The notes under the pieces are model-generated. The model had not been told where the DNA came from and made no database searches. It was given only the letters and a program-made list of their open reading frames with translations. Below, piece by piece: positions 20,891-41,414 of a stretch of 49,268 nucleotides of DNA (position 1 is its first letter; each line of letters opens with the position of its first letter). The translations under genes were made by a program, and so were the position numbers. The DNA lies in assembly GCF_035084215.1 (NCBI RefSeq), contig NC_090370.1, forward strand, positions 7,378,001 through 7,427,268, in the 5' to 3' direction. Source of the stretch: Heptranchias perlo. Taxonomy: Eukaryota.

Positions 20891-20972
20891 CCTAGCGGGA
20901 GAGATAGGGCAGCTTGTCTAACACTTACAGAAAACAATTCGTGAACCGCACAAAAAACCAAGACGTCCCAGG

Positions 20973-21233: not shown

Positions 21234-21509
21234 ATGTCTAACCGTAGCTTGTACCGTGTCAACTCCCGCTCCAAGCAATTCAGCAGCCAGTCTTATACCC
21301 CCGGCTCAGCAATGCAACGGGCCAGCTCCGTCCGCTCGGTCGGACTCCTGGGCACAGCGGCCGGGCAGAGACTGGGCGTCGTGCCCCTGGGCAAGGGGTC
21401 CCTCGAGCTGCCCCGATTCGAGGATTGCCAGGCTTTCCAGCAGCTTCGCGTTCAAGAGAAAGAACAGATCAAAGGATTAAATAACCAGTTCGCCACTTTT
21501 ATCGACAAG
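21234..21509 (+). CDS. krt8: krt8-like exon 1
   Basis: [10 protein letters not shown]...[19 protein letters not shown]; donor AAG|GTAAAA. Confidence 0.9.
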
Positions 21510-24500
21510 GTAAAAATAACGTTAGTTTAAAATTTATAAGTAACAAAAAATATTAAACTAAAATACAAAGTGTGGTTAAACTGTAACAAGATATTTAACT
21601 GTGAAATATGAAGTATTATCAAACAAAGTAAACTAACTGAAGTGTTATGTTAAACTATAAAATTATTTAAGTATATAATATGACATATTATCAGTCTGGA
21701 AGCTCCGGTTTAAACGGGTTATAGTTGATCCCTTCAAACATTTCAGATTGTTCTATATATAAAAGTAAACTGGAGACCTGCCGAATGAGCTCGCCTGGGG
21801 GCAAATTGCACTGAACCGTGACCAGCCCCACCAGTCTCCTGTCGGTGACTTTGAAGGTGCAGGTAGCGCACTTTGTAATAAAACATCAAATCCACAGATT
21901 GGAATGAAAAACAAAGTACTATTTCCGTCCTAGATTTGAGTCCGATTGTCTTATTTAATTCTCCTTTCCAAACTGCCCGTTACTTTGCTAAATGTGAAAG
22001 TTCACATTTAGAGATGAGTGTGAAATTAATATAATAAAAGGGGGAACCCCCCCTTAGATTAGATCCATTCCTTGTGAAATGTAATCAATTTTTTAGTTTG
22101 GCCATTTCACCTTTTACCGATTTGCATTTGGGTCTTAAGGGCGTTTTAAAGTCTCATTCCCTGAGTAACATTTGAAATCTGAAGCATATATTTTCTTTTT
22201 TATAGTGTTAAATGAGACTTTGTACTTTTTACTCTGAATTCACAAGCTTTCGGAGGCTACCTCCTTCCTCAGGTGAACGATGAGGAAGGAGGTAGCCTCC
22301 GAAAGCTTGTGAATTTAAAATAAAATTGCTGGACTATAACTTGGTGTTGTAAAATTGTTTACAATTGTCAACCCCAGTCCATCACTGGCATCTCCACATC
22401 ATGACTTTTTACTCTGAGTCGAGGTTTTTAACAATTTCTTGCTGCTTGATATTTAAATATGGGTTGTCTGTATCTTTTATCTGTAAATGAGCAGTTTGTG
22501 ACTAAGTGTCACTTGTTCTGCATTGGCACTGACCTAGACTATGGAGACCTGTAATTTTTTTACTCCACTCACCCTACCTGCAAACAGGTGCATGAAAAAT
22601 ATTAAAACATCTATATTTGATATGTTCTATTTTGGGGAATAAAGCTCCTGTGTACTGTAAATGTGTTTAAAACTCTGGTGACAGTGCAGTTCTAACCCCA
22701 AGTGCATTTGCTTGTGTTTCAGGTGCGGATACTGGAGCAACGGAACAAGCAATTGGAAATGCACTGGAAGCTGCTCCAGGAGAAAGGTGTGCGCACTTCC
22801 AATATTGACAACCTGTTCCAGGCTTATTCCAACAACCTCAAACAGCAGGTCGATGCCTTGGCCCAGGAGAAAATCCGCCTGAGTGCCGAGCTCGAAGGCA
22901 TGCAGATGCTGGTGGAAGACTACAAGTCAAAGTATGTGGAGAAGTGTTCAAAAGTGCCTCTGATCGAAGAATTAGAGAGAGGTTGAAATTCCTTTGTGCC
23001 ATTGTGGTCATGATGGCGAGTAGACAATGGCTAATGACTTAGTTGGAATAGAATATACATGAATTTTAGCCAGAGAGAAACAAAAGTTTGACTGCAGATT
23101 TTTCCCATGAAATCATGCGGTGCAATATAAGTAGTGAATGTTTTCCCCATGAAATTCCCCTGGCTGCTATTTTAGCAAAGATGCTAACTGGTTTTTAAAA
23201 TAAATTTAACACTTCCTTTAAAATAGGGAACAAGAGAATTACTTATAAATATGTTAACACACTCATTACTAATATCTTGTAGCATGTGGCTTGGGCACGG
23301 AATCTGCAGTGTAACTGTAGACTGACATAACCCATCTGAGTGCAAATTGATTTCAGGGTCGTCACAGTCACACGATCACTGGGAATTTCCTGAGGGGGGG
23401 TCCTTCCGATTGGTCACTGCAACGTCGGCAAAAACCGCCGTTCACTCGGTGTACCCAGGATTTCTGCCGCAGTTAAGGTGGGCAATCGGGAGAACACTCC
23501 TCCCCGCCGCCAGGAAATTTCCCGTGTAAGTTTCTAATGCTGGTAAAAACCCAACAGGAAAGTCAGCTCTCTATTAACAATAAGCAATTCACCAGCACTC
23601 TGATGCATGTGAGCAGAGCTCTGTGCCCATGTTTCTGTACACCAGCACAGAGCTCAGAGCAGACACAACTGGGGGTGAGGCCGTATACCATGGTGTTCCC
23701 ACTTGCAGGGGCTCTCTGTAGCTAAAACAAAAGCGACAGTTGAGTGAAGCACAAAGACATTTTGTAAAGTAATCTGAGACTCCCTTTTGCTGCAAAACTG
23801 GTTTTGGTAACCAGAAGTCTTGTGTGCCAAGCCAATATCAAATATCAACCATGTTCTTTTTGGCAAAAGAATCAGAGGGGAGAATTTTTTAAAAACTCAG
23901 CAAGTTGTTACAATCTGGAATATACTGTATGAAAGGGTGGTGGAAGCAGATTCAATAATAACTTTCAAAAGGTGAATTGGATATATATTTGAAAAGGAAA
24001 AATTTGCAGGGCTATGGGGAAAGAGCAGGGGAGTGGGACTAATTGGATAACCAATGAAGTATTTTTGAAGTGTAGTCACTGTTGTAGAGTTGGGAAACGT
24101 GGCAGGCAATTTACACTCTGCAAGGTTCCACAAACTCGTGATGTTGGTTGAGGGCTAAATGTTGGCCAGGAATCTCGACGCCTGTTGCTTAAATACACTG
24201 CCCAGCGCCGATTGAAACCGTACAGACCAAAAGGTCCCAGATTCAGTCCTCCGTCTGTGCTGAATTAGCTGATCTCTGCCAGGCTGGTGAGTGAGATACT
24301 ATGCTAAACCTCAGTGCAGCCAAGGTTCCAACCCTGATCTCCATCCAGTGAACACTTTGCTCATGTGGGGTTTAAAGACCAACATGGATTGGTTGGACCC
24401 AATGGCCTGTTGAAATTCTATGTGGGAGTGCCACTCTTATCTCTGGTGTCTTGCCCAAGTGGCTGCTGTTCTTATGTGAGTATTGGCTGACTGTTTGTTT

Positions 24501-27500
24501 GCCTGGGGAGGGACATCAGTGTTGTTTGATCCTGTCCCTGCCCTTTGTGCACAAATGCACTTTACAGTTGGAACCATTGTATGGTAAACAGGTGGAGGAA
24601 CTCTAGTTAATTATTCCTTCCTTAGCCCAGAAGTGCTGAGGTAAATTGCATTACCAGTTCAGCTGGGCAGATAGTAACCTGGGACCTTCCTGGTCTGTTT
24701 TGGCCCAATACCACACCACACAGTCTATAACCATCTTCTATTTTTTTTTTAAATTAAAATGTCACTTAACATTATTCATGCATCGACACTCTTCAACGGA
24801 AGACTGTGCAACCAGCAATTAAAATTAGTTTGAACAGTTCAGCTATATTTCAGTACACCTGTCACTCTGAACCTGTACACCCTGAAAACAGCTTTGAAAT
24901 GAAATCTTTCCCCTTCGATAGGACACTACCACCAAATGCTGGCAGAGCCATTTACTTCAGTATATCTGTAGCCAGTGGCAGACATTAAGTGCTCTAATTC
25001 TTCCTGGGCGTGCACACAGGTTAATGGATTTGCATTCAAATTTCTTTGCTATTTTAATATACTTTAAATGCACCTGCTTAAAACAAATGAGGGCTGATTT
25101 TAACTCCCTCTGCCCTGTGAGGGGAAAAAGGGTGGTAGCAGCCCAAAAATGCTGTCTGGTCACTTATTGCCCCATTTAGGCAGGCACTCTGGCTGCTGCC
25201 ATCTTGGGGAGGGCCCTCAGATGGGCAGCTGAATGCCAATTACCCCTTTAGAATTCCACCAGTAATACCAAACCAAGAGGAAATTTTCACTAACCCATTC
25301 AGTGCCACTACTTGTGACCAGAACAATTCCTACCTGCACATTAGTAGAGTTACATTAATTGCTTTTCCCGGAGCAGTTTGGCCTAGAAAAGAACAGGTTG
25401 CACACTGAAATGAATCAGTCGAATTACTGTTGAAGGCACAAAGTGAGCACCCAGACTCAACGACAAGCTTGCATTTATATAGTGACTTTAATGCAGCGAC
25501 ATGACTCGGTGATGGGGGGGGGGAATAAACTGAACACAAATGGGGGAGTTAGGTGACCAGATGCATGATCGAATCGATTTATGTTTTAAGAACGTGCTTC
25601 AAGACTGTTGGTGGAGAGAGAGAACACAAATTTTAAATAAATGAAAGTATGTGTTGGTGTTTGTTTAATTTTTTTTTGCTTGCCCCCCTCACTTGGATCA
25701 CTGCTGTAGCTCTTTATATTTCAGTCTGGTCTCTCTCTCATCTGTTGCTCATCCTGTCTTGCTGGGCTAGTCTTGCTCATTCCTGACTCTCTGATTGCTT
25801 AAGTTTAAGCTTCCTTTGGCTTCCCTGTTCCCTGGTTGTGGCTGATGTGTAGACCTGTGAGGAATAGAAAGGTAGGATAGAGTACCATCCCCCATTGGCA
25901 CAGAAAAATAACTTTCAGGTCCTCTTGTTCCTTCTCCCTCCCCTTCTGTCTGCCATTGTACTTGTGATTTTTGGGGGGGGGAGGGTGGGAATCCTATTAT
26001 TGTGTGCTTGCCTCCCTCTGCACACCTCTTCAAAAAATCCACCCTTGACTCCTCTGTCCTTGCAAACTACCGTCCCATCTCCAACCTCCCTTTCAAGTCC
26101 TTGACTGTGTTGTCGCCTCCCAAATCACTGCCCATCTTTCTCTCAACTCCATGTTTGAATCCCTCGAATCAGGTTTCCGTACCTGCCACAATACTGAAAC
26201 TGCCCTTATCAAAGTCACAAATGACATCCTATGTGACGATGGTGAACTATCCCTCCTCATCCTTTGACACGGTTGACCACACCATCCTTCTCCAACGACT
26301 CTCCTCTGTCGTCCAGCTGTGGGACTGCCCTCACCTGGTTCCATTCCTATCTGTCTAGTCTTAGCCAGAGAATCACCTGCAATGGCTTCTCTTCCTGCTC
26401 CCACACCATTACCTCTGGAGTCCCCCAAGGATCTATCCTTGGCTCTCTCCTATTTCTCATCCTTGTTTTCAAATCCCTCCATGGCCTCACCCCTCCCTAT
26501 CTCGAACGTCCTCCAGCCCTACAACCCTCCAAGATCTCTGCGCTCCTCCAATTCTTGCCTCTTGCGCATCCCTGATTTTAATCGCTCCACCATTGGCTGC
26601 CGTGCCTTCAGCTGCCTAGGCCCTAAGCTCTGGAATTCGCTCCTTAAAACCTACCTCTTTGACCAAGCTTTCGGTCATCTGTCCTAATACCTCCTTGTGT
26701 GGTTTGATGTGAAATTTTGTTTGATAATTGCTCCTGTGAAGCACCTTGGGACCTTTTACTATGTTAAAGGTGCTATATAAATATAAGTTGTTGTTGCTTA
26801 GCACAGATGACTTTCTATTGCACAGGCCCACTCAGAAGCTGACTTTTTTTGTGTAAAATTGTGGTACTCAGCAGCACATTATGCTCTGAGTAGGTGTTGC
26901 AATTTGCAGGATGTATCATGGGCGAGCTGCCTAACCACTTGCCCTAACCACAGTCCGGAGGGCAGTTCTGGTTCTTATTTAACTATCCTGACGTCACTGA
27001 AGGCACAGAGTGATTGTTTTATTGAAAGAGATGTGTTCTTATCGGCTTCACCCCATCTCTCCCGGGCCATGTTTAAACTACAGTAATTGGCAGACTGGAA
27101 TTCCTCTTTAAGGAAACAAATGCCCAAACTTTATCTCTACCCTCTGATAAAGGAGAGACTGCTCATCAATGTGATTTCCTGTGTGGCCACTCATTAACTG
27201 GTTGGGTAGCTGACATCAGCTTGGTGGCTTTTTTTAATTCATGAAAAGGTGGGTCTCCACAACTATAAGGTAGTTCTTTTCAATTTTTGTCCCTCCTGTC
27301 CCAAAGGCACTGACTTATGCAGAGATATGGCTCCACTAGCACTGGTATCTCATCAATGGCTATTCTTCATAGGCAAGCCTAGACTGAGTGTCAGCAATCT
27401 GTTTAACTATGGGATGGATGGATGGATAGGGGGGAGGGGGGGGGGGGGAGAAGGGACGTCATGGTCAAGCCTCATCTTGTACTCACCAGATGTCTATACA

Positions 27501-30500
27501 CATCTGCATTCTGGCAGGAATAGTGATCAGGAGTGGCAACTGCCCGCCACCTCTCCCTAACCTATGGTACTGAGGTCTATTGTATGATTCCTACCACTGT
27601 CCAGTCAACGTTGGCTAATTTGACGCAGACCAAGGGTTGAAGGCAGGACCTGCTCTGCATGGTGGAGTTTCAAAATGGGCTAGTTGAGTCATCGAGGTGC
27701 TCGAGCTCTTTACAATGACGTTTGCTATTTCTTATCTAGATAGGCCAAATACTTCCGCGTGAACAACCCCTCCCTAAACTTATCTTTTCCTTTTGCTCAA
27801 TAGTTTTAATGATTGATTGCTTTTATTGGTGGAAAGCAAGAACTTTTGATTCCTTGCATGATCTCAGGAACTCTCAAAGCACTTTACAACCAATGAATTA
27901 CTTTGAAGGGCAGTCACTGTTGTTTTGTAGGCAAATGCAGCAGCCAAGTTGCACACAGCAAGGTCTCTCAAAGACCAAGAGATGAATGGTCGGTTAATCT
28001 GTTTGGTGATTTTGGTTGAGTGATCAATGTTGGCCAGGACGCTAGGAGAATGCTCCTGCTCTTCTAAGTGCCATGAGATTTTTTTTTTTTACATTCACTT
28101 GAGCCGGGGCCTTGGTTTAACGTCTCATCCAAAAGACGGCAGCTCTGACAGTGCAGCACTCCCTCAGTACTGCACTGGGCGTGCCAGCCTAGATTTTGTG
28201 CTCAAGTTTCTAGAGTGGGATTTGAACACACTGCCTTCTGACTGAGGTGAGAATGCGAACAGAGCTACGGCTGACACACTATTGAGAAGTATGGTGGAAG
28301 GTTATAGCCCAAAGTACAGGACACCAGCAAGGTTGCACAGAGTGGGGGACAACTCGAAGTAGTGGATTGGATTTGAAAACCCTGCAGCTGGTGAGAGGGC
28401 ATTAACCATCTGTGCATTCATGGGTCATGTTTACACAGGGTTAATGATTACTGGGGTTTATTGGGAAATACTCTGCAGTTGATAACTTGGAAATTCTACC
28501 GACAGCTCTTGCCTGGAATCCTTTATTCTGACTTTTTTTGTTCTGCAGGTATGAAGATGAAATCAATAACCGTACAGAGAGGGAAAATGACTTTGTAATC
28601 ATCAAGAAGGTGGGTTCAAGCTTAAAAGTCAATCCAGTCAAGAAACTACTGGGCATCTCCGCAGGCTCAGTGGGTAATGTACTGTCCAGTATGGAGCTGA
28701 GCTATAAACACTAGGAGGCCCTAGGCCTGATCTTCGGTTTGTGCTGTTAGTTGATCTCTGCGGTCAGGTGCTGCAATGGTACTCAGCATCTCTGTGCTCG
28801 GGGGGAGGTGGAAATCTGATGAGGCTGCCTAGGATGAACACTATCCATTTTTTTTTTCCCCCCCTCCCTCGCCACAGTTGAAAACCTGCTGACGCTCAGG
28901 TGGGATTTCAGCAGGTGGGTGCAGAAAGTGGGGTGGGGTACCTTTACATTGGATCCCCTTCCATTTCTATGGCTATCAGACTTTCCTGGCATCACCTGTG
29001 CTGGTGTCTGATGTGCCTCCCCAAATATGGGCAGTGGTATTTAAATGAGGGGGTAATAATGGTGTGACAATAGATTTCCTGTCATTGCCCCCTCAGATAT
29101 GCTGGACATAACTTGTGCCTCAGCTGCTAGGTGATGGGAAATGTGAAAGAAGCTTAAGTGGACATAGCAGGCACTTTGAGAGTGAGCGAGAGAGAGAATT
29201 TGCATTTTGAGTCAAGGCCACTGTTTGGTGAACAATGGAGTTCTTGCCTGGCCCTTTAAGCTGCTGCAGGCATTGGAGATCCTGCTGCCATTTGCCATAT
29301 TCACCTCCTGCCCCCACTGCCCCGGGGACAAGCTCCCAATTGCTGTCAGCAATACTGCTATGCCAAAACCATTTAAATTAAGCTGACCCCAGAACATTCA
29401 CTGGGGTCAGCACCCAGCTCAGAGCGGGCAGACATGCTGCCATGCCACACTTGTGCCGATGAAGAAAATCTAAGCTTAGACGTAAAGAATGGTCGCTTTG
29501 GCAAGATACTAGAAGTGGCTGGTGATCTGGAACCCAATGAGGCTGAGTTCCTTCAGTGGAAGAGAGGAGAAAGAAAAACAATGGAGACCATTAAAAATTC
29601 CTCCCTTGTGTACCTTGTGCTTATGTCTGTCTGTCTGTCTTTGTCTTGTAGGATGTTGACGAAAGCTATCTCAACAAGGTGGACCTGGAGGCTAAACTTG
29701 AGAGCCTTACTGATGAAATCAATTTCCTGAAGGAAATATTTGATGAGGTAATGAACAAATTGTGTTGTAAGAAACAGAGACTTTCACAAAGAACTCTCTC
29801 TATTTTTAAAACTTCAATTTTGTGATGTGGGCATTGCTGGCAAGGCCGGCATTTGTTGTCAATCCCCGGTTGCCCCTCGAGGATGGCGATACAACTCAGT
29901 GGCTTGCCAGGCCACTTCAGGGGGCAGTTAAGAGTCAACTATATGGCATGGGACTGGAGTCACATTGGCCCAGACCGGGTAAGGACGACAGGTTTCCTTC
30001 CCTAAAGGATGTTAGTGAACCAGTTGGGTTTTTACGTCATGTTTACACAGCTTTTACTGAAGCCAGCTTTTTACTTCCAGGATTTTAAAACTGCCATAGT
30101 GGGATTTGAACTCTCATTTACTGGATTATTAGTCCAGGCAGCTGGATTACTAGTCCAGTAACATAATCGATAAGCTACAGTTCCCATATATTTACTGTTT
30201 TACCAATACTGTGGGTTTCTGAACCACTTTACAAAACATTATGCTCTAAAAATAATTAATTGTGTGTAACATTTCAATATGATAAAATGCTATTTAAATG
30301 GAAGCATTTTTTTTACATACTGGGGAGAACAATTTACTTTCGGGGAGGGGGTGCAGGCTAATGCTTGTGCTTAAGATGAGGCATATTAACACTGAGGAGA
30401 CTAACATTTTCTCCTTTTCGACGTCTGGGGCTGGGATTTTCCTCCGGGTGGAGTGGGGCTCATTTGCAGTGCGTGGTGGGCTCCAGACAGAATTGCTGCT

Positions 30501-33500
30501 GCCAAAAGGGAGCTTGCCAGTGTGAGGACAGCACCAGAAGGTGGCATCAAGGCTGAGGCTTTCAACGGGTAAATACAGGGCCCAACTTGGAGGGAGTGGA
30601 AGCTGGTATTGGGCCCTCTCCCTTCACTAGGGGAACACAGGGCCTTTACTGCCATTTCGAGAGGCTACCACTATCTTCCTCATGGTGGCCCAGGGGATTG
30701 GCGGTAAATGGGGCATACAGGAGGGAAATCCTTTAGGGACCTGGTTCCTGTCTTTTTTTTCCCCCCCGCCCAGGTTTGGATGGTATCGTGGAGTCCTGGC
30801 CCCATGCAAGCACACTGAGAAAATGCAAGTACTGCACAGTAGGTTAGTGAGCATTCGAAGGAGACAGATAGGCCAGGGTTTTGGGTGGGACCCTTGCCCT
30901 GAAGGCTTCCACCACTTGCAGTTTTTCTTTTGATCTCGGGCACTCCCAGGTTAGGTTTGTCGCCATTATCTGAACCCATTGACCAGTGGGTTCCCTCCAA
31001 GTATCCACTATCTTTATCTAATACACTGGCATTGGCCCTCTTAAATAAGGGTGCCTTAATACAGTTTACTGTGCACTCCTGCTATGGTTCCCATTAGCCC
31101 CATTCCCTCCTCAACCAAATGTTTTCACAATAACATAGAAAAAGTAATCCAAAATACAAACTGAGTGTTTTAAATCTAAAATAAATCCTGGCACGTGTGC
31201 AAGGGAATATCTGAAATTCAGATGAGTCTGGGACCAACAGAGTGCAATTCAATAGAACGAATACTGAATGAGTTTGTATGAAATCCCATGCTACTTTAAC
31301 AGAGGCATTGCCTCATTTAAAGTAAACATGTGGCAGTAGGAAGAGACACCAAGGTATGATTTGGTGATGAGGGCCACACAGTAAGGGCCGAGGTGTCACC
31401 TCCAGTGAGTCAATTTTCCATCATAGCTAGGATGTCAATGCAACTATCCACAATAAGGCTGTGGATGTCAAAGGCCTTGTTTGCAAGCAAACGGACATTC
31501 TGGAGGGAAATGTGGAGAGGGCCCATGATTGTTGATCCACTGGTAGTCCCAAGGGGGCAGCAGTGGGTGGGATGAGTGGGATGGAAAGGAGGTTGGCAAG
31601 ATTAGCCCCCCAGTGGACGTACAGGGTGGGAAAGTCAGTGAGAGGAGGTTGGTCCTTGTAAGGTGGCAGTGACAATTGCCTTGATGGGTCCTTTTGGAGA
31701 ATGCTGAGAAGCACAAGAGGGTGGACTTAACTAAGCAGAATTCAAGCCTGGAGAGTAGGAAGGCAAAGGAGTAGTGATAGGTTGGGGTCGAGATTAGGGG
31801 AGGGGAGATGAAAGGTGGCATAACTGGGTAATAGGAAGGCAAGGAGACAGGAGAGAAGAGCCCAAGAGGGGGGGGATTAAAAAAAGATAGAAGTAATGGG
31901 CTGGAGCCTGAAGCGGCAGTCAAAATATGCAAGTAAATGGACACAAAGGGAATTCACGTTATATAGGCATGGCAGAGATTAGGAGAGACATTTCCTCATT
32001 GTAAGGAGACAATATGACAGTCCAAAGATAAAGTCTGAGGGCCCATGGTGGGATGAAGTTGACTTGTAGACCGGGTGAAGCCAGCTGGGAGCATCGACGA
32101 ACCAATGTCCAGGCTCGGAGCCTGTTCTGGACTCAATCGCTCGCCACAAGCTATTCAAGGGGCAGTGTATCAGTGGGCGAACTACTGGAGTGGAAACTGA
32201 GGGCTGAGGAGGAGTGGAGAGTCGACCATGAGCCAGCAGAGGTTGATCCAGGGGAAGGACATTAATGCTGGGGAATGGAAGACTTCCCATTTTGGTCATC
32301 AAGCCCTCCCAGGTCAGGCACAGCACATTTAGATGCAGGGTAAAGCTCTCTACTCTGCCCCAACAGTGTGTTTCAGACCCAGCTATAGAAGAACACCCTG
32401 TACTATAGCACTTTCCACTTCTGACCTTGTGGCCTCTGTGCTCATTAGGGCAAAATTAATGCCTGTTTTATCAAAAGAATTGGCACCATTCAATTTACAA
32501 TACAAATCCATCAACAGAATGTTAGGAACAGGACCGGGAGTAGGCCATTCATCCCCTCAAGCCTGTTCTGCCATTCAATTAGATCATGGCTGATCTGAGA
32601 AATCATTAACTGCTGGTGTTATTTCAACCCATACTACAAGGAAATGTAGGGTACTATACATTAGAGCAGAGAACTTGCAGGCTCACATTCAAATCAAGTT
32701 CTTTTAGTGAGCATTACTAATCCTTTTGTTTAAGTCTAGCTTAAGTGCCAAGACCATATTGATGGCCATGCCTGCTAGGAACTGGTTTGAGACGGTCCAA
32801 ACTCATCAGATGCTGTGTTCAACCTGCTACTGCAGATTACAGTAATCTCTGGACCCCTCACTTATATTGCACTTTTGTAAGATACCCAATGGGTATGAAA
32901 CATTTCCATGTGAACATGTGCTAGAGTAGAGTTTCTCCCAGCATCAAATACCTCCTGTAAACACTAACACTGGTGCACTAGCACCAGCAAAAGTGACCTT
33001 TATAATATTTTCCAGTTAGTCCTGTTGACACAACTCTCACATGGTGTACAATACAAATGTGATCTAGTTTTTTTTTGTTTCTATTTAAAGAGTTGTAACT
33101 GGTAAGCAGGACGCAGGCATTGCTAAACTGAAGTACATCTGTTTATTTTCCCACCCAGGAAATCTATGATCTGCAGGCCCAGATGAAGAACACTGCTATC
33201 ACTCTGGAAGTTGACACTAGCCGCAACCTGGACCTTTCCAGCATCATCAGTGATGTCCGGGCTCAATATGAAGGAATGGTGAACAAAATTCGCCAAGATA
33301 CCGTGATTTCATATGAAACCAAGGTAAGGCTTGGTGTATTCTGTCAAAGGGTAAATAACTCTTGGCGAGCAGACACCAGCGCTCACCAGGTTTGAACGGC
33401 CTCCTTCTATGAGGTCACTTCTAGAATGCTGTGACTAAGAAAAAAGGCAAAAACCTAATCTTAGCATCTTGCATAAACATAAATATTGACGTCCAAAGAG

Positions 33501-36500
33501 AAATATCTTGAGCAATGAGCTAAAACCAGACTAATAATATTAGACGGTAGTCATGATGTGGAGATGCCGGTGATGGACTGGGGTTGACAATTGTAAACAA
33601 TTTTACAACACCAAGTTATAGTCCAGCAATTTTATTTTAAATTCACAAGCTTTCGGAGGCTACCTCCTTCCTCATCGTTCACCTGAGGAAGGAGGTAGCC
33701 TCCGAAAGCTTGTGAATTCAGAGTAAAAAGTACAAAGTCTCATTTAACACTATAAAAAAGAAAATATATGCTTCAGATTTCAAATGTTACTCAGGGAATG
33801 AGACTTTAAAACGCCCTTAAGACCCAAATGCAAATCGGTAAAAGGTGAAATGGCCAAACTAAAAAATTGATTACATTTCACAAGGAATGGATCTAATCTA
33901 AGGGGGGGTTCCCCCTTTTATTATATTAATTTCACACTCATCCGTTGTCGAACGGACACCGCGCAACAATCGCCAAACAGGAGGGTTCCCTCCCAGTCGG
34001 GGAACACTTCAGCAGTCAAGGACATTCAGCCACCGACCTTCGGGTAAGCGTACTCCAAGGCGGCCTTCGAGACACACGACAACGCAAAATCGTCGAGCAG
34101 AAATTGATAGCCAAGTTCCGCACCCATGAGGACGGCCTCAACCGGGATCTTGGGTTCATGTCACGCTACACGTTACCCCACCAGCGAACAAATGTTATCT
34201 GTTTTTAATATAACGGGTCAGTTGCTGTCTTTTCTATGTTTCTAACTCTCTATCTCTTTTTTTTTGTTTGTTGTTTTTTTTGGTGATTTGTATATTCTGA
34301 GACCTGGCAGGTAACACCTGTCTGTCTGCACACTGATTGCCTTGGCAACGGGCAGTTGAAAAAACTGTCTGTTATCACCAGCATTGTTCTGTGAATTATA
34401 AATGCGACTTCATTTCGAGGACTTCATTTCCGCATCGTTCACCTGAGGAAGGAGGTAGCCTCCGAAAGCTTGTGAATTTAAAATAAAATTGCTGGAATAT
34501 AACTTGGTGTTGTAAAATTGTTTACAATAATATTAGAAAGTAATGTATTAACATGCAGTTCATCTGTCTGCTATTTTAAGATAAAACTGGTTAATAGTGG
34601 GCAACGGCATTTCATATGAACCAATTAATATGGGCATTCCTAATATTGCACAGCATGCTTTCAATCCCAGGAGTGTTAAGTTGTGGATAAAATGGTGGCC
34701 ATGGCCACCATATTACCAAGGTACTTCACTGCCATTGCTGGCAGGATTCGTGACTTTGATCGCAGTGCTGTAAAGTCACTGTTGGTGGGAGAGGTCACCA
34801 GTTTTTTTCTAGTTGTGGGTGGAATGAAAATGCAGCCTGCCCATAAGGGTCACTGATGTGGTTTCTGGATTGCTGACCTGTATGAACCTTCCTAATGAAA
34901 AAAGGCCTGGAGGCCAGAAAATTAAGTTGTGAATTAATTGTGTCTTTCAAACAAATGTGGGTGCACAAGATTACATAGTCCTTGGGACTGGGAGCACTAG
35001 GCGATTACCAGACCACTTCTCAATGAAGCATTTCTGTAATTTAAAGTAAGCATTAGTCAAAGGCAAGACTTGGATCTGAAGGTTCTGCTAGTTTCTAATG
35101 GGGATTGATCATGTTGGCAGAACAGACAACTGAATCCAGCTTAAGTCACATGCCGATGAAGGTGTGCTGTACCATATTACTGCACTCATGTTGACTTTTG
35201 TGCTAAAATTATAGACTGGAGGAATTTGACCTCCCGGGAGACCAATTTATATCCCGAGCCATTGACATTCGAAGGTATTATTTTGCCTGCACAAGTCATT
35301 TCAAGTGCTTATCTGTTTCACCATAAGGCACCACATAAATGGAACTATTGTTCCTGAAATTCTGTGGGATTTTCCAATTTTTCACCGACGCTCCAACCTT
35401 CAGGGAAGTAGCAGAGCCCTGATATAACCCAGGTTAAGCTGGGTCTGTATGATTTCCCTGGGGTTTACAGCAGGAGACTGGGGAATTTCAGGATTGTTGG
35501 GGGTAATTTTGACTTTGGGTGATTAGTGGAAAACGGGTGATATCGGATCAGCCGCCCTTTACACACCTTACACGATTCTCAAATCCCTTGCACTATCGCC
35601 CAAAGTCAAAATACCCCCATTGCCTTTTATTTTCTGGAAACAGTGAAATGTGGTGTAGTACTGATGTTCTACTGCCAGGTGAATCATGTCTTGGTTGATA
35701 AATCCATTTCCATTTTAAAATCTTCGAAAATGCTGTGAAGCAGTTTGTCTCAAATGTAGAACTTCACTCATTGAGAAAATACTGAATTTATTTTTATTGT
35801 ATATTGCAAGATGATAACCCCACTGTACTGTACCCTCACATGAGAATGGCATCATTTTACAAATTGCCATTCAGCCACTCCACATTCGTTTTCCTCTTTC
35901 TCCTCATTGTATTAAAACCGTGACTCATCACACCATCTCCTACTCTAATTCCTTCTTTCCCACAACCAGAACTTCTTCTTATCTCCCTCAGTTTTATCCT
36001 CCTACAGTCCAAAACCAAAGCTTGGCCTCAAAGAACCCTACTTCCTGATTTTACCTAATCTTCTCTTTTTAAAAAAAAATCAACCTTGATGGCGTCTTGG
36101 ACTGTGGCCGTTGGCCATTCCCTCGGGCTTCTCAATGAAGAGAAAACAATAACCAAGGAAAGCACTACGACAGAGAAAACAAAACTGCAATTTGGAAATA
36201 CAGAAAACATGAGTCCATCACTATCTTTAAAGAGTGAATTATGTTAATGTTTGGGGTGAATTGTTAAAACCATTAGTACAATGGCCCCCCCCTTTATTGT
36301 AGGGATGGTCTGGGTTCCTTTAAAGAATGATTATGAATTTTATGTTATTAATGGTTCTCTATTTTAGTTTGACACTATGAAGAAAAGTTCTGGAAAACAT
36401 ACAGATGAGCTCCGTATCATTAAGACTGAGATATCGGACATGGGCAGACATGTCGGAAGACTAAATTCTGAGATCCAGAGTTTGAAACAACAAGTAAGAT

Positions 36501-39500
36501 CACTTTATGCAGGATTGAAATTCTTAAGTCATTGCTATTTTTGTTGTAAATGCCACTCTGCACCCACTCTCTCTAATTTTCACCCCTCTTCTCCTGGAGG
36601 TGTTGACTCTTTCTGGTTGCACAGCTTCCAACTGCCCTCTGGTACCTCACTCCAGTGGCCAAGTTTCATGTGTGGCCTTACAACAAGTGTTAATGGACTA
36701 TTTGAGATAACTGGCTCGATTGAAGTCAATGGAGAGGATAACTGGGTGGGGTGTATAATGGGGGGCCGATCTGCTACCACCTGTTTTCCACGACCGCTGA
36801 ACATTAAAATCAGCCCCACGGTCTTTGCAGCATGCATTGCTGAACAACAGATCAGGAATGGGAACCCTGGCTGATTATCCCTCCTGATCGAGGGGTGCTG
36901 AGGCCGTGGTGTAGGGCCCCTCTTGCTGCCCTGGCTCAGCTCAACTGACTCAGCACAGACCACGGACTGAACCTGGAACCTTCCTGGTCTGTTTGGATTA
37001 GGTGCACAACAGCAGGTGCACTTGTAAATGGAGCAAATTGACTGGGGAAGGAGGAGCCAAGTTAAGACATTGCTACCATTAAACAGAGGAGATTGTGACA
37101 CTTTTTGTGTTTAACGTTAGTGACTATGGCAGTTTTAACTCTTATCGAAACAATTTGTGGATTTAAAATGAACAAAGATAGTTTTATTTTTAATAATGTG
37201 AAGAAATGTATTTAAAAGGAAAGAGGGGAGATTACAGGGTAAGCTAACCTGGGCTTGTGCCCTTACTACTGACCAACTAGGAGGGCATTGGCAGAGGCCA
37301 GTGAGTTCTTCACCTCTTTTTATAGCTCAAGGAATGGGAGTGGAGGATGGAGGTGGAAAATGAGTAAAGGGAAGGTGGAGGGAGGAGTTATTGATGGTGT
37401 TCAACATCTCAAAAGAATTTCTGCTACTTTATGAATGTGTCAATTAGAATTTGTTGCAAATGTTTGTTTTTGTTAAAATGGCGCACGTACATTAGTGAAT
37501 TGAAGGGCTAGCTTTCAGCAATGCTAATTATCAGTTCGGAACATTGAAACAGGAGGCCATTCAGCCCCTCGAGCCTGTGCCGCCATTCAATTAGATCATG
37601 GCTGATCTGTATCTTGCCTCCATTTACCCGTCTTGGTTCCATATCCCTTAATACCTGACAAAAATCTATCAATCTCAGTTCTGAAATTTTCAATTGACCC
37701 CCAGCCTCAACAGCTTTTTGCAGGGGAGAGTTCCAGATTTCCACTCCCCTTTGTGTGAAGAAGTGCTTCCTGACATCACCCTTGAACGGCCTGGCTCTAA
37801 TTTTAAGCTTATGCCCCCTTGCTCTGGACTCTCCTGACCAAAGGAAATAACTTCTCTCTATCTACCTGATCAAATCCAAAGTTGGGACATTGGCTCACTT
37901 TGCACTGTCCATATGCTACAGAAAGATCAGATGGAGGCAGCAATCGCAGACGCGGAGGGACGCGGGGAGCTGGCCCTTACTGAAGCTAAGAGCCGCATAG
38001 CTGAGCTACAGGCAGCCATGGAGAAGGGTAACCAGGAAATCATCCGTCAGGTGCGAGAGTACCAGGACTTAATGAACACAAAGCTTGCCCTGGACATCGA
38101 AATTGCCACTTACAAAAAACTGCTCGAAGGAGAGGAAAGCAGGTTAGTACATTCTGGGTACCTCTTGAAATAAAAACAGAAAATGCTGCAGAAGCTCAGC
38201 AAGTCGGGCAGCATCTGTGAAGAAAGAAACAGTTAACATCTCAGGTTGAGGACCTTTTGTCAGAACATCTGGGTACCTCTGGAACTGGCTTAGTTCAATA
38301 AATTAGGCTCTTTCTGGAAGGCTGGGTTCAGGGTTGCACAAAGTATCCCAGTTGAGGGTGTCCTTGAGAGTGTTGCACAACATGGCCATGGATGTAACTC
38401 TATTGAAACCTGCCAGAAGATGGCAGGGACCTGGTTGCATTGGGTCTTTGCTGTTTCTGGGACTTTCTGTGCAGCCTTGTTGGATTCAGAACCTCTGTCC
38501 AACCCTTACAGGGCAAATGACTCCAAGGGGGTGGCCACTGGGTGGGGGTGGAGGGAGCAGAGCTAGGGTTAGGGACACTCAATACTAAAAGTTCCTGCTT
38601 CCCTGGGTCAGTTGGGACCCACTTGCCTGGGCAACCTTACCCCCACCCCCCACCCAACATGGTCAGCAGATGCTCGATCTTCAGGCTTCATGGAGCAAGT
38701 TGGAGATATGTTCATAGTGGCACAGGTGCCTGCCAGCCCCAAGTAAATTAGATGTCCTCCCACTGAGCCCACAAACTCTGGCAGGGTCAGTGCTGGTGCA
38801 CTTAATCTCTGCTGATTATTCCGGGCCTGTGTTCCACAACTCGTGTGTGTTAATGAGGGCCAGTGTATGTTTAACTGCTGCAGCATGATCAATCTTCAAA
38901 AAATATAAACAGAGCCCCTTTTTTGGATCAAAGTGGTGGCGTTAGAACACTGAGCTCCCATTCAGATCACCCAAGTTTGTAGGGCATTGGATCATCCAGT
39001 GAGTTCTAAGTGATATAAAAAGAAAGAACTTGCATTTATATAGTGCCTTTTATGACCTCAGGATGTCCCAAAGTGCTTTACAATCAATGAAGTACTTTTA
39101 AAGTGTAGTCACTGTTGTAATGTACGAAACGTGGAGCTGCTCCCACTCCGCCATCGTAACTTCACCGTGAGTATGTCAGAAACCCTCTTTGTGTGTTTAC
39201 ACTGCATTTCCAGTGAAATTACGGCAGTGACAGGGAGCAGTTCCTAAGAGATTAAGGGCATTCAAAGTGCAGTTGACTGCTAGACCAGGATAGAGTAATA
39301 GAGATTATTACTCTTAGAGCTTCATTGTACCTTTTATTCATTCTTAACTGTTCTCGTGTGTATGTTCTTTCCAATAACAGTTACTCTTGTCTCTGATTTC
39401 AGATTGTCAGCGCCAGTGAATGTGTCCTTTCACCAATCAATCAAAAGTAAGAAAACTGCTCTGAATGTTTTCAATTACAAAATCTAATCATTTTGTGCAG

Positions 39501-41414
39501 TACAAAATACATTTTACCTTCCTGGTGTGCCACTTGGTCCTAAAAGACTAAGAAGGACTGAGATTCAATCTCTTACCTGCAACCAGGGCCGGAGTTGGGT
39601 GGTGGTGGTTGGGGGGGGGGGGGTCTCAATGCCCCTAGGCCAGAAAGTGGGGGAAGGGCAAATCAACCTCTGCTCTTGTTGATTATCCAGTGACTCCTGC
39701 TGGACAGTGCTCATGTACAGACATTGGGGGCAATTTTTAATATGGACGATATTGCATTGGCCATCCCTTATACATCCCACCTGATTTTTCCCTTCCATAT
39801 AGAGCAGCTAATTCAATATTGCCAATTTTACACCATCACCCAAAGTTACAACTACCCCCATTGAGTAGAGATAGTCAAGCTTGGTTATAAGGCCCTGGTT
39901 ACAAGGCCTGCCCAGTTCTGGTCTCCATATTATAGAAAGGATATAAAGACATTGAAGGCGGTGCAAAAAAGATTCACAAGGGTAATACCAGAACTGAGAG
40001 GATATCCTTCTCAGGAAAGGCTGAACAGGCTGGGGCTCTTCTCTCTAGAAAAGAGAAGGCTGAGGGGTGACCTGATAAAGGTCTTTAAGATTATGAAAGG
40101 GTTTGATTTGGTAGATGTAGAAGATGTTGCCACTTGTGGGGGAGTCTAAAACTAGAGGTCATCAATATAAAAGTCACTAATTAATAAATCCAATAGGGAA
40201 TTCAGGAGAAACGTCTTCACCCAAATAATGGTAAGAATGTGGAATGCATTACCACAAGGAGTGGTTGAGGCAAATAGAATAGATGCATTTAAGGGGAAGT
40301 GAGATAAACACATGAGGGAGAAAGGAATAGAAGGATATGCTAATAGGGTGAGATGAAGTAGGGAGGGAGGAGGCGCACGTGGAGCATAAACGTCAGCATA
40401 GACCAGTTGGGCTGAATGGCCTGTTTCTATGCTATAATTTCAATGTAACAAAAGGTAGAGTGTAAAAATAATTTGAAAGCCATGGCTATTTTGAACATTT
40501 TGTCATAACAGATTCAGGCAGTAATGCATGGTCCATGGTATCAAATATTTCTTGCTATGTTGATGTGCTAAATATTTTTTATTTGGGGTATGTGCTTAGC
40601 CAGAGGCACCTTCACTGCCCTCTACCCAGTGGTACTCCTTAATACAGCCGGGAACTATTTGTGGCCTTCCTCCCCTTGGCTGTGGTCCTCAGCAGACCTG
40701 TTATTCTGGTAGTCTCTGGACCTCCATGAATAGTCTGCCCAGCTGTAGGATGCCAACTGAACTGTGACCCAATACTATTTCTTGTCCTTTCACTTGCTCC
40801 ACAGCAAAAGGTGGGCAAGGGAATGCTACTAGGAGCAAGTACTATCCCAGTGCCCATACACCAATTGAAAGAGCCCTATTACCAAATGGCACAATTGGTC
40901 CAATCATTTTTTTTTGTTTTCTCCTTTGTTGTTTTGAGAAATTGCTGGCCTTCACTTGGCAATGGCCCACAGCTCCCTGTTTGGGGAATCAGGGCCAGAG
41001 ACCCAGCCCCCTTCATTTACTCCTGTTGCAGCATCCCTTAGTGTGGAACCTCACAAGACATTGGGATTGTGACCCTTGACCGAAAGTCAGTAACGTTGAT
41101 GGACCACACAAAGGAATGCAACGGTCTCCATCTGTTAATGTTTAATGTTGGTCACAGGTACTGCTTAGCGTTCAGTATAATAAATTGGTGGACTAAAAGT
41201 TGTGCTTTCCAATGCAATTGTTGCTCATTCTCTTGCCTCTCATTTTAAAATGTGCACATGTTCAACAGATTACGGACTTCCGGCACTGCAGATCGAGAGC
41301 TTTAACCGTGGTGGGCTGGAAACAAGCGGAGTAAGCCGAACCCTTGTCGTCAAGACTATTGAAACCAAGGATGGCAAAACACTCTCCGAGTCCCCCTTTC
41401 ATCCAAGAAAATGA
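21234..41414 (+). CDS. krt8: Type II keratin, keratin 8-like; 9 exons join(21234-21509,22723-22931,28549-28609,29652-29747,33159-33323,36368-36493,37922-38142,39403-39446,41269-41414); 447 aa
   Basis: [30 protein letters not shown]...[32 protein letters not shown]8-type tail [11 protein letters not shown]. Exon sizes 209/61/96/165/126/221 are the type II pattern; all GT-AG; 1344 nt in frame. The sequence is divergent, so it may be a K8 paralogue. Confidence 0.85.
22238..22406. mobile_element. Penelope-like element: palindromic pLTR-only insertion in krt8-like intron 1
   Basis: Flanked by direct repeat ACTTTTTACTCTGA (22224-22237 and 22404-22417); 35-bp perfect inverted arms 22237-22271/22281-22315; nearly identical to the pLTR at 34433-34528. 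Confidence 0.85.
22239..22277 (-). ncRNA. Minimal hammerhead motif (antisense copy in intron 1)
   Basis: Reverse complement is identical to 34438-34476. Confidence 0.6.
22723..22931 (+). CDS. krt8: krt8-like exon 2 (209 bp)
   Basis: [19 protein letters not shown]...LVEDYKS; tttcag acceptor, gtatgt donor. Confidence 0.95.
23381..23523. mobile_element. Short MITE-like element
   Basis: Ends GGGAATTTCCTG / CAGGAAATTTCCC with internal self-complementarity. Confidence 0.45.
23855..24170. mobile_element. CR1 3' fragment (+) abutting a DeuSINE fragment (-)
   Basis: Reverse-complement similarity to 3700-3860, then SINE tail sequence from ~24050. Confidence 0.6.
26030..26796 (+). mobile_element. L2 RT and 3' end, internally deleted
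   Basis: [21 protein letters not shown]; [13 protein letters not shown]; [11 protein letters not shown]; L2 tail. Confidence 0.8.
27835..28277 (-). mobile_element. DeuSINE copy
   Basis: Homologous to 291-719. Confidence 0.7.
28549..28609 (+). CDS. krt8: krt8-like exon 3 (61 bp)
   Basis: [20 protein letters not shown]; ctgcag acceptor, gtgggt donor. Confidence 0.95.
29652..29747 (+). CDS. krt8: krt8-like exon 4 (96 bp)
   Basis: [32 protein letters not shown]; ttgtag acceptor, gtaatg donor. Confidence 0.95.
29820..30180 (-). mobile_element. SINE sharing its 3' tail with the LINE at 44360-45000
   Basis: GATGTGGGCATTGCTGGCAAGGCCGGCATTTGTTG is reverse-complement-similar to 44946-44980; tRNA-like head near 30180. 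Confidence 0.55.
33159..33323 (+). CDS. krt8: krt8-like exon 5 (165 bp)
   Basis: [38 protein letters not shown]...YETK; cccag acceptor, gtaagg donor. Confidence 0.95.
33549..33942. repeat. 394-bp inverted repeat, copy B (partner 22013-22406)
   Basis: Reverse complement of 22013-22406. Confidence 0.95.
33678..33716 (+). ncRNA. Minimal hammerhead motif (second copy, within a 35-bp hairpin)
   Basis: Identical to 34438-34476. Confidence 0.65.
34438..34476 (+). ncRNA. Minimal type I hammerhead ribozyme motif in Penelope pLTR
   Basis: TTCAC-CTGAGGA-A-GGAGG(TAG)CCTCC-GAAAGCTT-GTGAA: stem I, CUGANGA core, stem II, GAAA, palindromic stem III. Confidence 0.7.
35498..35619. mobile_element. MITE
   Basis: TIRs TGGGGGTAATTTTGACTTTGGGTGAT / ATCGCCCAAAGTCAAAATACCCCCA; a related copy lies at ~39724-39861. 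Confidence 0.65.
36368..36493 (+). CDS. krt8: krt8-like exon 6 (126 bp)
   Basis: [27 protein letters not shown]...SLKQQ; ttttag acceptor, gtaaga donor. Confidence 0.95.
37545..37872 (-). mobile_element. CR1-type LINE 3' fragment ending just upstream of the exon 7 acceptor
   Basis: [14 protein letters not shown]; hairpin-type 3' tail CAGGAGGCCATTCAGCCCCTCGAGCCTG. Confidence 0.7.
37922..38142 (+). CDS. krt8: krt8-like exon 7 (221 bp)
   Basis: [19 protein letters not shown]...[20 protein letters not shown]; ctacag acceptor, gttagt donor. Confidence 0.95.
38166..38267 (-). mobile_element. Short pLTR-like (Penelope-type) insertion with 13-bp TSD
   Basis: TCTGGGTACCTCT repeated at 38153-38165 and 38268-38280; interior is reverse-complement-similar to 47652-47752. 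Confidence 0.65.
39403..39446 (+). CDS. krt8: krt8-like exon 8 (44 bp)
   Basis: (R)[14 protein letters not shown]; atttcag acceptor, gtaaga donor; phases 2 and 1 fit the neighbouring exons. Confidence 0.8.
39895..40445 (+). mobile_element. CR1 RT C-terminus and 3' UTR
   Basis: [17 protein letters not shown]...[25 protein letters not shown]. Confidence 0.8.
41269..41414 (+). CDS. krt8: krt8-like exon 9 (tail, stop TGA)
   Basis: (N)[11 protein letters not shown]...[24 protein letters not shown]; caacag acceptor. Confidence 0.88.

Follow-up and report, generated by a model that had tools for sequence, protein, structure and literature searches.

An older neighbouring Penelope copy as template for an inverted arm in a shark keratin gene

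How does a retroelement inserted into one intron of a gene come to carry, in reverse, a piece of another intron of the same gene? The question is raised by a keratin locus of the shark Heptranchias perlo in the stretch of DNA analysed here (the window: 49,268 nucleotides, positions 7,378,001 to 7,427,268 of NC_090370.1; coordinates below are window positions). A first-pass annotation of this DNA had claimed an inverted intron-1 copy inside a Penelope-family insertion, and self-comparison of the window confirmed it: 33549-33942 is the reverse complement of 22013-22406 over 394 nt with one mismatch, which lies at 22386 and is a CpG in the intron-5 copy and a decayed base in intron 1. Both insertions are hosted by a keratin-8-like type II keratin gene with nine coding exons on the forward strand (21234..41411, by tblastn of P0004, which is best named as keratin type II cytoskeletal 8-like and whose exon 2 matches a shark protein at 99%). 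Intron 1 (~21510-22722) and intron 5 (~33327-36390), both on the forward strand, were placed by tblastn exon mapping, and GT..AG joints for introns 1-4 are found in one contig set that is presumed to be RNA. A type I keratin at 20483-20893 on the reverse strand, which we take to be K18-like, stands head-to-head with the keratin-8-like gene starting at 21234 on the forward strand, with start codons ~340 nt apart. Both insertions are intronic, and this single locus gives no evident effect on the keratin gene.

Element coordinates throughout take the A of the ORF's ATG as +1. The older insertion, in intron 1, is bounded by 12-bp TSDs (TTTTTACTCTGA, forward strand, at 22226..22237 and 22406..22417, by sequence comparison). 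Within them, a short inverted arm (22237..22287, reverse strand, element -85..-135 by arm mapping) is followed by a forward arm of pLTR plus tail (22281..22406, forward strand, element -119..+6), which has one CpG change at 22386. An origin of this head from fold-back of one cDNA was rejected, the spacer orientation being wrong. The host segment that served as source (22013..22237, forward strand, 33% GC) has the left intron-1 TSD at its end.

The annotated Penelope-family insertion between 12-bp TSDs in intron 5 was likewise borne out by sequence comparison: AATAATATTAGA stands on the forward strand at 33533..33544 and again at 34526..34537, where its first 3 nt are common to the element end, and TSDs of the kind expected from TPRT-type insertion thus flank both insertions. 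After one base absent from the element and from intron 1 (33545..33545, no strand), the left arm (33546..33674, reverse strand) follows the element from +9 to -119 and is identical to the intact copy at 129/129 positions. It runs into a copy of the intron-1 palindromic head (33668..33718, forward strand), of which intron 1 is the sole possible source, and then into captured host intron-1 sequence (33718..33942, reverse strand) that is 100% identical to its source and includes one intron-1 TSD. There follow an inverted piece of 12 nt (33939..33950, reverse strand, element -615..-626), sharing TCATC with the host piece and 1 nt with the right arm, and the right arm itself (33950..34528, forward strand, element -615..-35), which comprises the endonuclease C-terminus, the 3′ UTR and a pLTR without tail. 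The right arm differs from the intact copy by two substitutions and a 2-nt deletion, and matches very young copies at 99% (best 40 of 1571 candidates scored). Its variant at -62 was tried as a switch-point marker and set aside: it has 35 scattered genome matches, and the second variant is absent from 29/29 other loci fetched, so that -62 does not mark a subfamily.

Four extra bases at the start of the left arm had been thought possibly element-derived, and this holds for three of them: 33546-33548 are element +7..+9, and 33545 is not element. The left arm thus has three element bases past the end of the intron-1 copy, and its CpG at -14 is undecayed. Since the element's state is found at +7..+9 and at the CpG of -14, the arm took its start on the element; +9 is a genuine family end, at which 181 arms stop. 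The switch from element to intron 1 is placed between -13 and -119, inside 106 nt of pLTR identity. The return to the element was by the 5-nt microhomology TCATC, the complement of which occurs three times in the element unit; the annotation had already reported it at the joint between host piece and 12 nt. These features support an arm that started on the element, left through pLTR homology and rejoined by microhomology, and the template switch is solid.

It might be objected that a repeat-induced misjoin put intron-1 sequence into intron 5. Both inner junctions are indeed absent from the contig rows listed and rest on the assembly, and one short-read contig crosses 22013 unbroken. This contig evidence is weak, however, since contigs drop low-depth branches, and short-read contigs from a single sample, which may be the source of the assembly, reach 24-29 nt into the element at each of the four outer junctions, an overlap below the 31 nt required for a junction bridge. 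Given also that the copy has a CpG which intron 1 lacks, begins with element-only bases and returns by a 5-nt microhomology at a family-typical position, and that comparable captures are found at other loci, we consider an assembly artefact very improbable. A second objection would be that the 225 nt belong to the ordinary interior of a many-copy, non-autonomous element, and one captured filler elsewhere has indeed passed from L323 to L291 (see below). The annotation had proposed as a check that the host piece should occur at these two sites alone, and the search of the 3.25-Gb genome gave, within its sensitivity, just two matches, both of them these sites; as the piece moreover forms one uninterrupted stretch with the rest of intron 1 and contains the TSD of the insertion there, we attach next to no credence to this objection.

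What is usual for the family was assessed from its other copies. An intact copy (L063) has a 902-aa ORF with an RT (Pfam RVT_1, E 3.4e-10). Pfam gave no GIY-YIG match at E 0.01 in this ORF, and its C-terminal endonuclease is presumably the part carrying a Cys pair, YIG and RQRMNGHR, the motifs by which we identified it. One ORF with RT and C-terminal endonuclease (the latter by motifs), a tandem unit of 3066 nt with partial tandem/pLTR and inverted 5′ arm, and a 30-40 nt tail at one end alone are those of a Penelope/Poseidon-type EN+ PLE, which this family is, with the Poseidon clade name resting on architecture. The available extracts on Penelope/Poseidon elements describe the same single ORF of RT and C-terminal endonuclease, a pLTR with a hammerhead-like motif, partial tandems, a head-to-head inverted arm, a one-end tail and two initiation sites (PMC11167929, PMC8557442).

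The exact 36-nt pLTR core has 6152 genome occurrences. Our survey, a non-random sample drawn by patterns and contig order, covered 314 of 322 loci (four copies of the keratin locus and four embedded in satellite were left out) and yielded 259 distinct TSD-bounded insertions, besides 106 arms without a TSD call, many of them cut by the locus edge. The median TSD length is 12. Two arms are present in 183 of the 259, and the inverted arm of the keratin locus, once put forward as proof that such an arm can be a separate product, is not needed for that purpose, as overlapping head-to-head arms are already the family norm. A tailed arm is paired with a tail-less arm in 175 of 180 two-armed insertions, and likewise in intron 5. 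This pairing matches the behaviour of PAc, described in part of one study as having two initiation sites and two-strand extension (PMC11167929).

The pLTR contains a minimal hammerhead-like motif, recognised by eye at 34437..34477 on the forward strand (CUGANGA, stem II, GAAA and a palindromic stem III). Core motifs and stems I/II are seen in the predicted hammerhead (z -1.28); Rfam returned no hammerhead match at E 10, and the matches it did give were dismissed as hairpin-shaped chance matches, all below gathering score. Minimal hammerheads occur in pLTRs, according to the available part of the study that guided this reading by eye (PMC4209133). Short-arm ends depend on the subfamily and lie mostly at -122, -130 or -137, just upstream of the hammerhead-like motif, and are likely to mark the transcript 5′ end. 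At L217:3909-4558 the forward arm is preceded by four tandem inverted pLTR arms (0..-130, then +9..-130 three times), read here as successive switches to another template on reaching the 5′ end of the RNA. Several further arrangements were seen in the survey. L200:3958-4447 is a tandem pair of palindromic insertions at one site with three TSD copies. Eight places on one contig (L111-L119, G000 C23) agree in arm layout and in a variant and presumably belong to a larger repeat or duplication, and L064/L065 (G000 C1:15.59-15.60 Mb), with identical palindromic heads 12.5 kb apart and shared neighbours, are a local segmental duplication and not two insertions. Finally, an element match in run X9 (100%, with the keratin exon-1 bin uncovered) was rejected as a sign of horizontal transfer because several repeats share similar depth ratios, ~1e-5 to 1e-4 of X2.

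The annotation had described the 12-nt piece as an inversion by twin priming which, when flipped, restores RQRMNGHR. The restoration agrees with the 29/29 other copies in which the 12 nt stand un-inverted before AACGG, and with the intact 902-aa ORF, which has RQRMNGHR at this position. The mechanism fared less clearly. The piece is inverted, and -615..-626 abuts the right arm at -615 with a 1-nt overlap, as in the abutment of L1-type twin priming, which in the extract available likewise predicts an inverted piece abutting the other arm (PMC11702581); the central spacer of a family-typical long palindrome, however, fits the 12 nt equally well. Inner ends lie within 21 nt of each other in 12 of 31 long two-armed copies, against a shuffle mean of 1.26 and with 0 of 20000 shuffles reaching 12 (the 31 were taken from 43 survey rows, 12 being dropped because an inner end lay 3′ of -250, the subfamily UTR could not be resolved or the centre was complex). 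The intron-5 inner ends, -626/-615, fit this near-equal class (compare L283, -415/-426), and the kept 12 nt correspond to the would-be hairpin loop plus 1 nt. The palindrome and twin-priming readings fit L173 alike; there the left arm jumps from -494 to -1174 and the right arm starts at -1164.

That the family duplicates host sequence locally, another claim of the annotation, received support from other insertions. A local donor, defined as a copy of at least 25 nt at 96% or more within 1.1 kb, was found for 7 of 11 non-element fillers (L069, L084, L098, L134, L168, L262 and L321), the 11 having been hand-picked after several matches had already been seen; the same rule is satisfied by 9 of 256 flank control windows. 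L168 lies outside the 259 surveyed insertions, and fillers that looked element-derived, tandem or doubtful were left out of the retest. An eighth filler (L233) has a local match at 93%, and three of the 11 gave no local match under the rule. These other captures have donors on either side and in either orientation, with no pLTR homology, and the microhomology-type captures seen are all within 810 nt. The local donor of L098 lies inside a decayed LINE with many stops and, of the 40 candidates scored out of 1750, is the sole other one to match at 100%. In L262 an inverted filler of 177-190 nt stands on the left side, directly after the TSD and with short microhomology, and is 100% identical to a donor without pLTR 305 nt away; there is no second arm. 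The filler of L323 comprises 162 nt from 465 nt away, and it is repeated 842 kb off on the same contig in L291, with its own TSD and outer ends. Between L291:4920-5328 and L323:1928-2343 (G000 C2) the TSD differs and the tail side is swapped, so that L291 may have arisen by retrotransposition from an L323 transcript or by ectopic gene conversion; an arm variant common to both was discarded as proof of descent, being a subfamily mark with 3477 matches. In the small sample of two-armed captures, the donor is on the tailed-arm side in five of six (L084, L098, L134, L168, L321 and L323), as in the window. At L171:3833-4284, 87 nt of LINE flank stand circularly permuted between two arms plus a repeated head, as would be seen if a small circle with an insertion and its flanks had been copied.

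Which template, then, was copied, and when? The annotation had proposed keratin pre-mRNA: during TPRT, the top-strand arm would have left element RNA for the nascent keratin transcript via the intron-1 pLTR, and would then have re-primed on element RNA beside the other cDNA. Several observations can be read in this way. The copied template strand is the sense strand of the keratin gene, and the arm starts at an initiation site of the family, with 181 arms ending after +9. Between the inverted 12 nt and the right arm the offset is no more than 1 nt, and L217 records several successive moves onto further pLTR templates. Oocytes and early embryos may express keratin-8-like genes. In vitro, the PAc protein is able to cut either strand and to extend it, as reported in part of PMC11167929. 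However, the orientation of the intron-1 pLTR dictates the strand, and therefore the captured strand cannot tell RNA from DNA; that the captured piece is antisense to the keratin transcript, as in RNA chimeras, is forced in the same way. Position 22013 lies ~500 nt inside the 1213-nt intron, where no RNA end is expected, and such an RNA would carry a 42-bp hairpin (predicted, -70.9 kcal/mol). The other captures come from within ~1 kb and are not scattered over transcripts, and this short range points to DNA near the break. Within the captured piece we found no splice junction, RNA end, poly(A) or editing; it is colinear intron, 100% identical and ending mid-intron, and an unspliced template would leave no mark. 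With the strand forced, the captures local and the 12 nt explained equally well otherwise, the results do not support keratin pre-mRNA as the template, which we regard as unlikely, and germline or early-embryo transcription of this keratin is not implied. A broader form of the idea, that any nearby pLTR-bearing transcript can be a second template for the Penelope RT, with the left arm from nascent pre-mRNA and L291 as a local daughter of an L323 transcript, appears doubtful.

Alternatively, the switch could have been to DNA while insertion was under way. The unjoined left cDNA arm would have paired with intron-1 DNA in cis, by snap-back on an exposed top strand or by invasion, would have been lengthened by a repair polymerase or the element's own RT, and would then have annealed to remaining element RNA beside the other cDNA. 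L262, whose geometry is identical, indicates that such copying occurs at insertion time, and templated insertions of L1 are described in these terms in the parts of two studies available (10.1101/2024.08.27.596794; PMC11702581). On the other hand, the microhomology-type captures seen do not exceed 810 nt, 11 kb is long for an exposed single strand, and the element RNA must survive the DNA excursion; we hold this course of events, too, to be improbable. Entry into intron 1 by microhomology with a homologous return was rejected, as the arm would have had to land by chance within 225 nt of the pLTR.

The explanation we prefer, at about even confidence, is that this young Penelope/Poseidon insertion began as an ordinary head-to-head palindrome, the greater part of whose left arm was exchanged for sequence from intron-1 DNA during replication or repair. 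The first product would have had a left arm of +9..-626 and a right arm of -615..-35, that is, a perfect stem of 580 bp with an 11-nt loop. The top strand, nascent or broken, would have stalled in this stem and paired with the intron-1 pLTR, its inverted repeat 11 kb behind; from intron-1 DNA it would then have copied the head, a single TSD and 225 nt of host intron, and re-entry would have been through TCATC at the loop, the hairpin's only unpaired part. The near-equal inner ends of 12 of 31 long copies count for a palindrome precursor. The sites that prove element origin (+7..+9 and -14) are both in the tail, outside the stem, and the local captures inspected join the forward arm without an abutting inverted piece of upstream element. 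Their donors are within ~1 kb, and one, a decayed LINE copy, is the best genome match. Junction 1 lies in a 106-nt inverted-repeat identity and junction 2 has the microhomology TCATC, a combination expected of BIR/MMBIR. A weak clock also exists: the 373 copied nt have no changes and the 579-nt right arm has three (p 0.08, or 0.19 for substitutions only), which weakly favours a tract younger than the insertion, although the clock would be void if the changes in the right arm were errors of the reverse transcriptase, as they may be.

Arm replacement has its own difficulties. No intact-palindrome allele was seen in the one sample examined, and both arms survive in the 12 near-equal palindromes of the survey. 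Strand invasion would have had little homology to use, 106-125 nt, and would have faced competing donors in the sister chromatid or in thousands of homologues of greater length. Single-armed captures such as L262 show that capture happens during insertion too, and an abutting inverted piece is also predicted by twin priming, L173 being readable both ways.

Comparison with known systems places the keratin locus between several of them. Penelope/Poseidon elements differ in that an arm filled with host DNA from a neighbouring older copy is absent from their descriptions in the available extracts of PMC11167929 and PMC8557442. Penelope elements of the rotifer Adineta vaga are alike in having non-element sequence between pLTRs within the TSD, host-DNA spacers and palindromes at the inverted junction; the part of that study at hand treats trans-mobilisation of genes and spacers and shows no local donor, whereas the shark donor is identified in cis and was entered via pLTR homology (PMC3846280). 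L1 also copies local genomic DNA, mostly <250 bp, into new insertions, but its donors are typically within 15 bp, whereas those in the shark are mostly at 250-810 nt (microhomology) or at 11 kb (homology) (10.1101/2024.08.27.596794, in part). L1 also forms two-template insertions and inverted pieces that abut other cDNA; in the extract available these pieces lack the overlap of hundreds of bases with the forward piece that the shark arms have (PMC11702581). LINE-1 chimeras resemble the keratin case in an opposite-orientation host piece inside the TSD, read in the part seen as twin priming on a second RNA; their pieces come from mRNAs elsewhere, whereas the shark piece is intronic, from the same gene, with an RNA origin as a candidate only (PMC13174262). 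In BIR/MMBIR products of the DUP-TRP/INV-DUP type, as far as one paper is available, the first switch is likewise in cis inverted-repeat homology and the second at 1-9 nt of microhomology, with repeats of ~0.9 kb or longer and tracts of kb to hundreds of kb (PMC11293582). The shark case, by contrast, has 106-125 nt of homology, with <400 nt copied, inside a retroelement palindrome. A literature search with most subscription papers outside its scope found no local templated capture or neighbour-copy templating in vertebrate Penelope elements.

The origin of head-to-head inverted Penelope arms is still unsettled, to judge from extracts of two studies (PMC11167929, PMC8557442), and the keratin locus adds a case in which an older neighbouring Penelope copy served as template. 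The thousands of near-identical young copies in this genome allow base-level rules on arm formation to be drawn: one arm is tailed and one tail-less, coinciding inner ends are frequent, and fillers come from DNA near the site. If the copying was DNA-templated, Penelope palindromes would be small rearrangement hotspots that duplicate host sequence; if it was RNA-templated, host pre-mRNA would have been written back in cis. Should the doubtful reading in terms of pLTR-bearing transcripts be true, pLTR-tagged host RNA would be returned to the chromosome near its site of transcription, and this would amount to a local, RNA-guided route of duplication in vertebrate germ lines.
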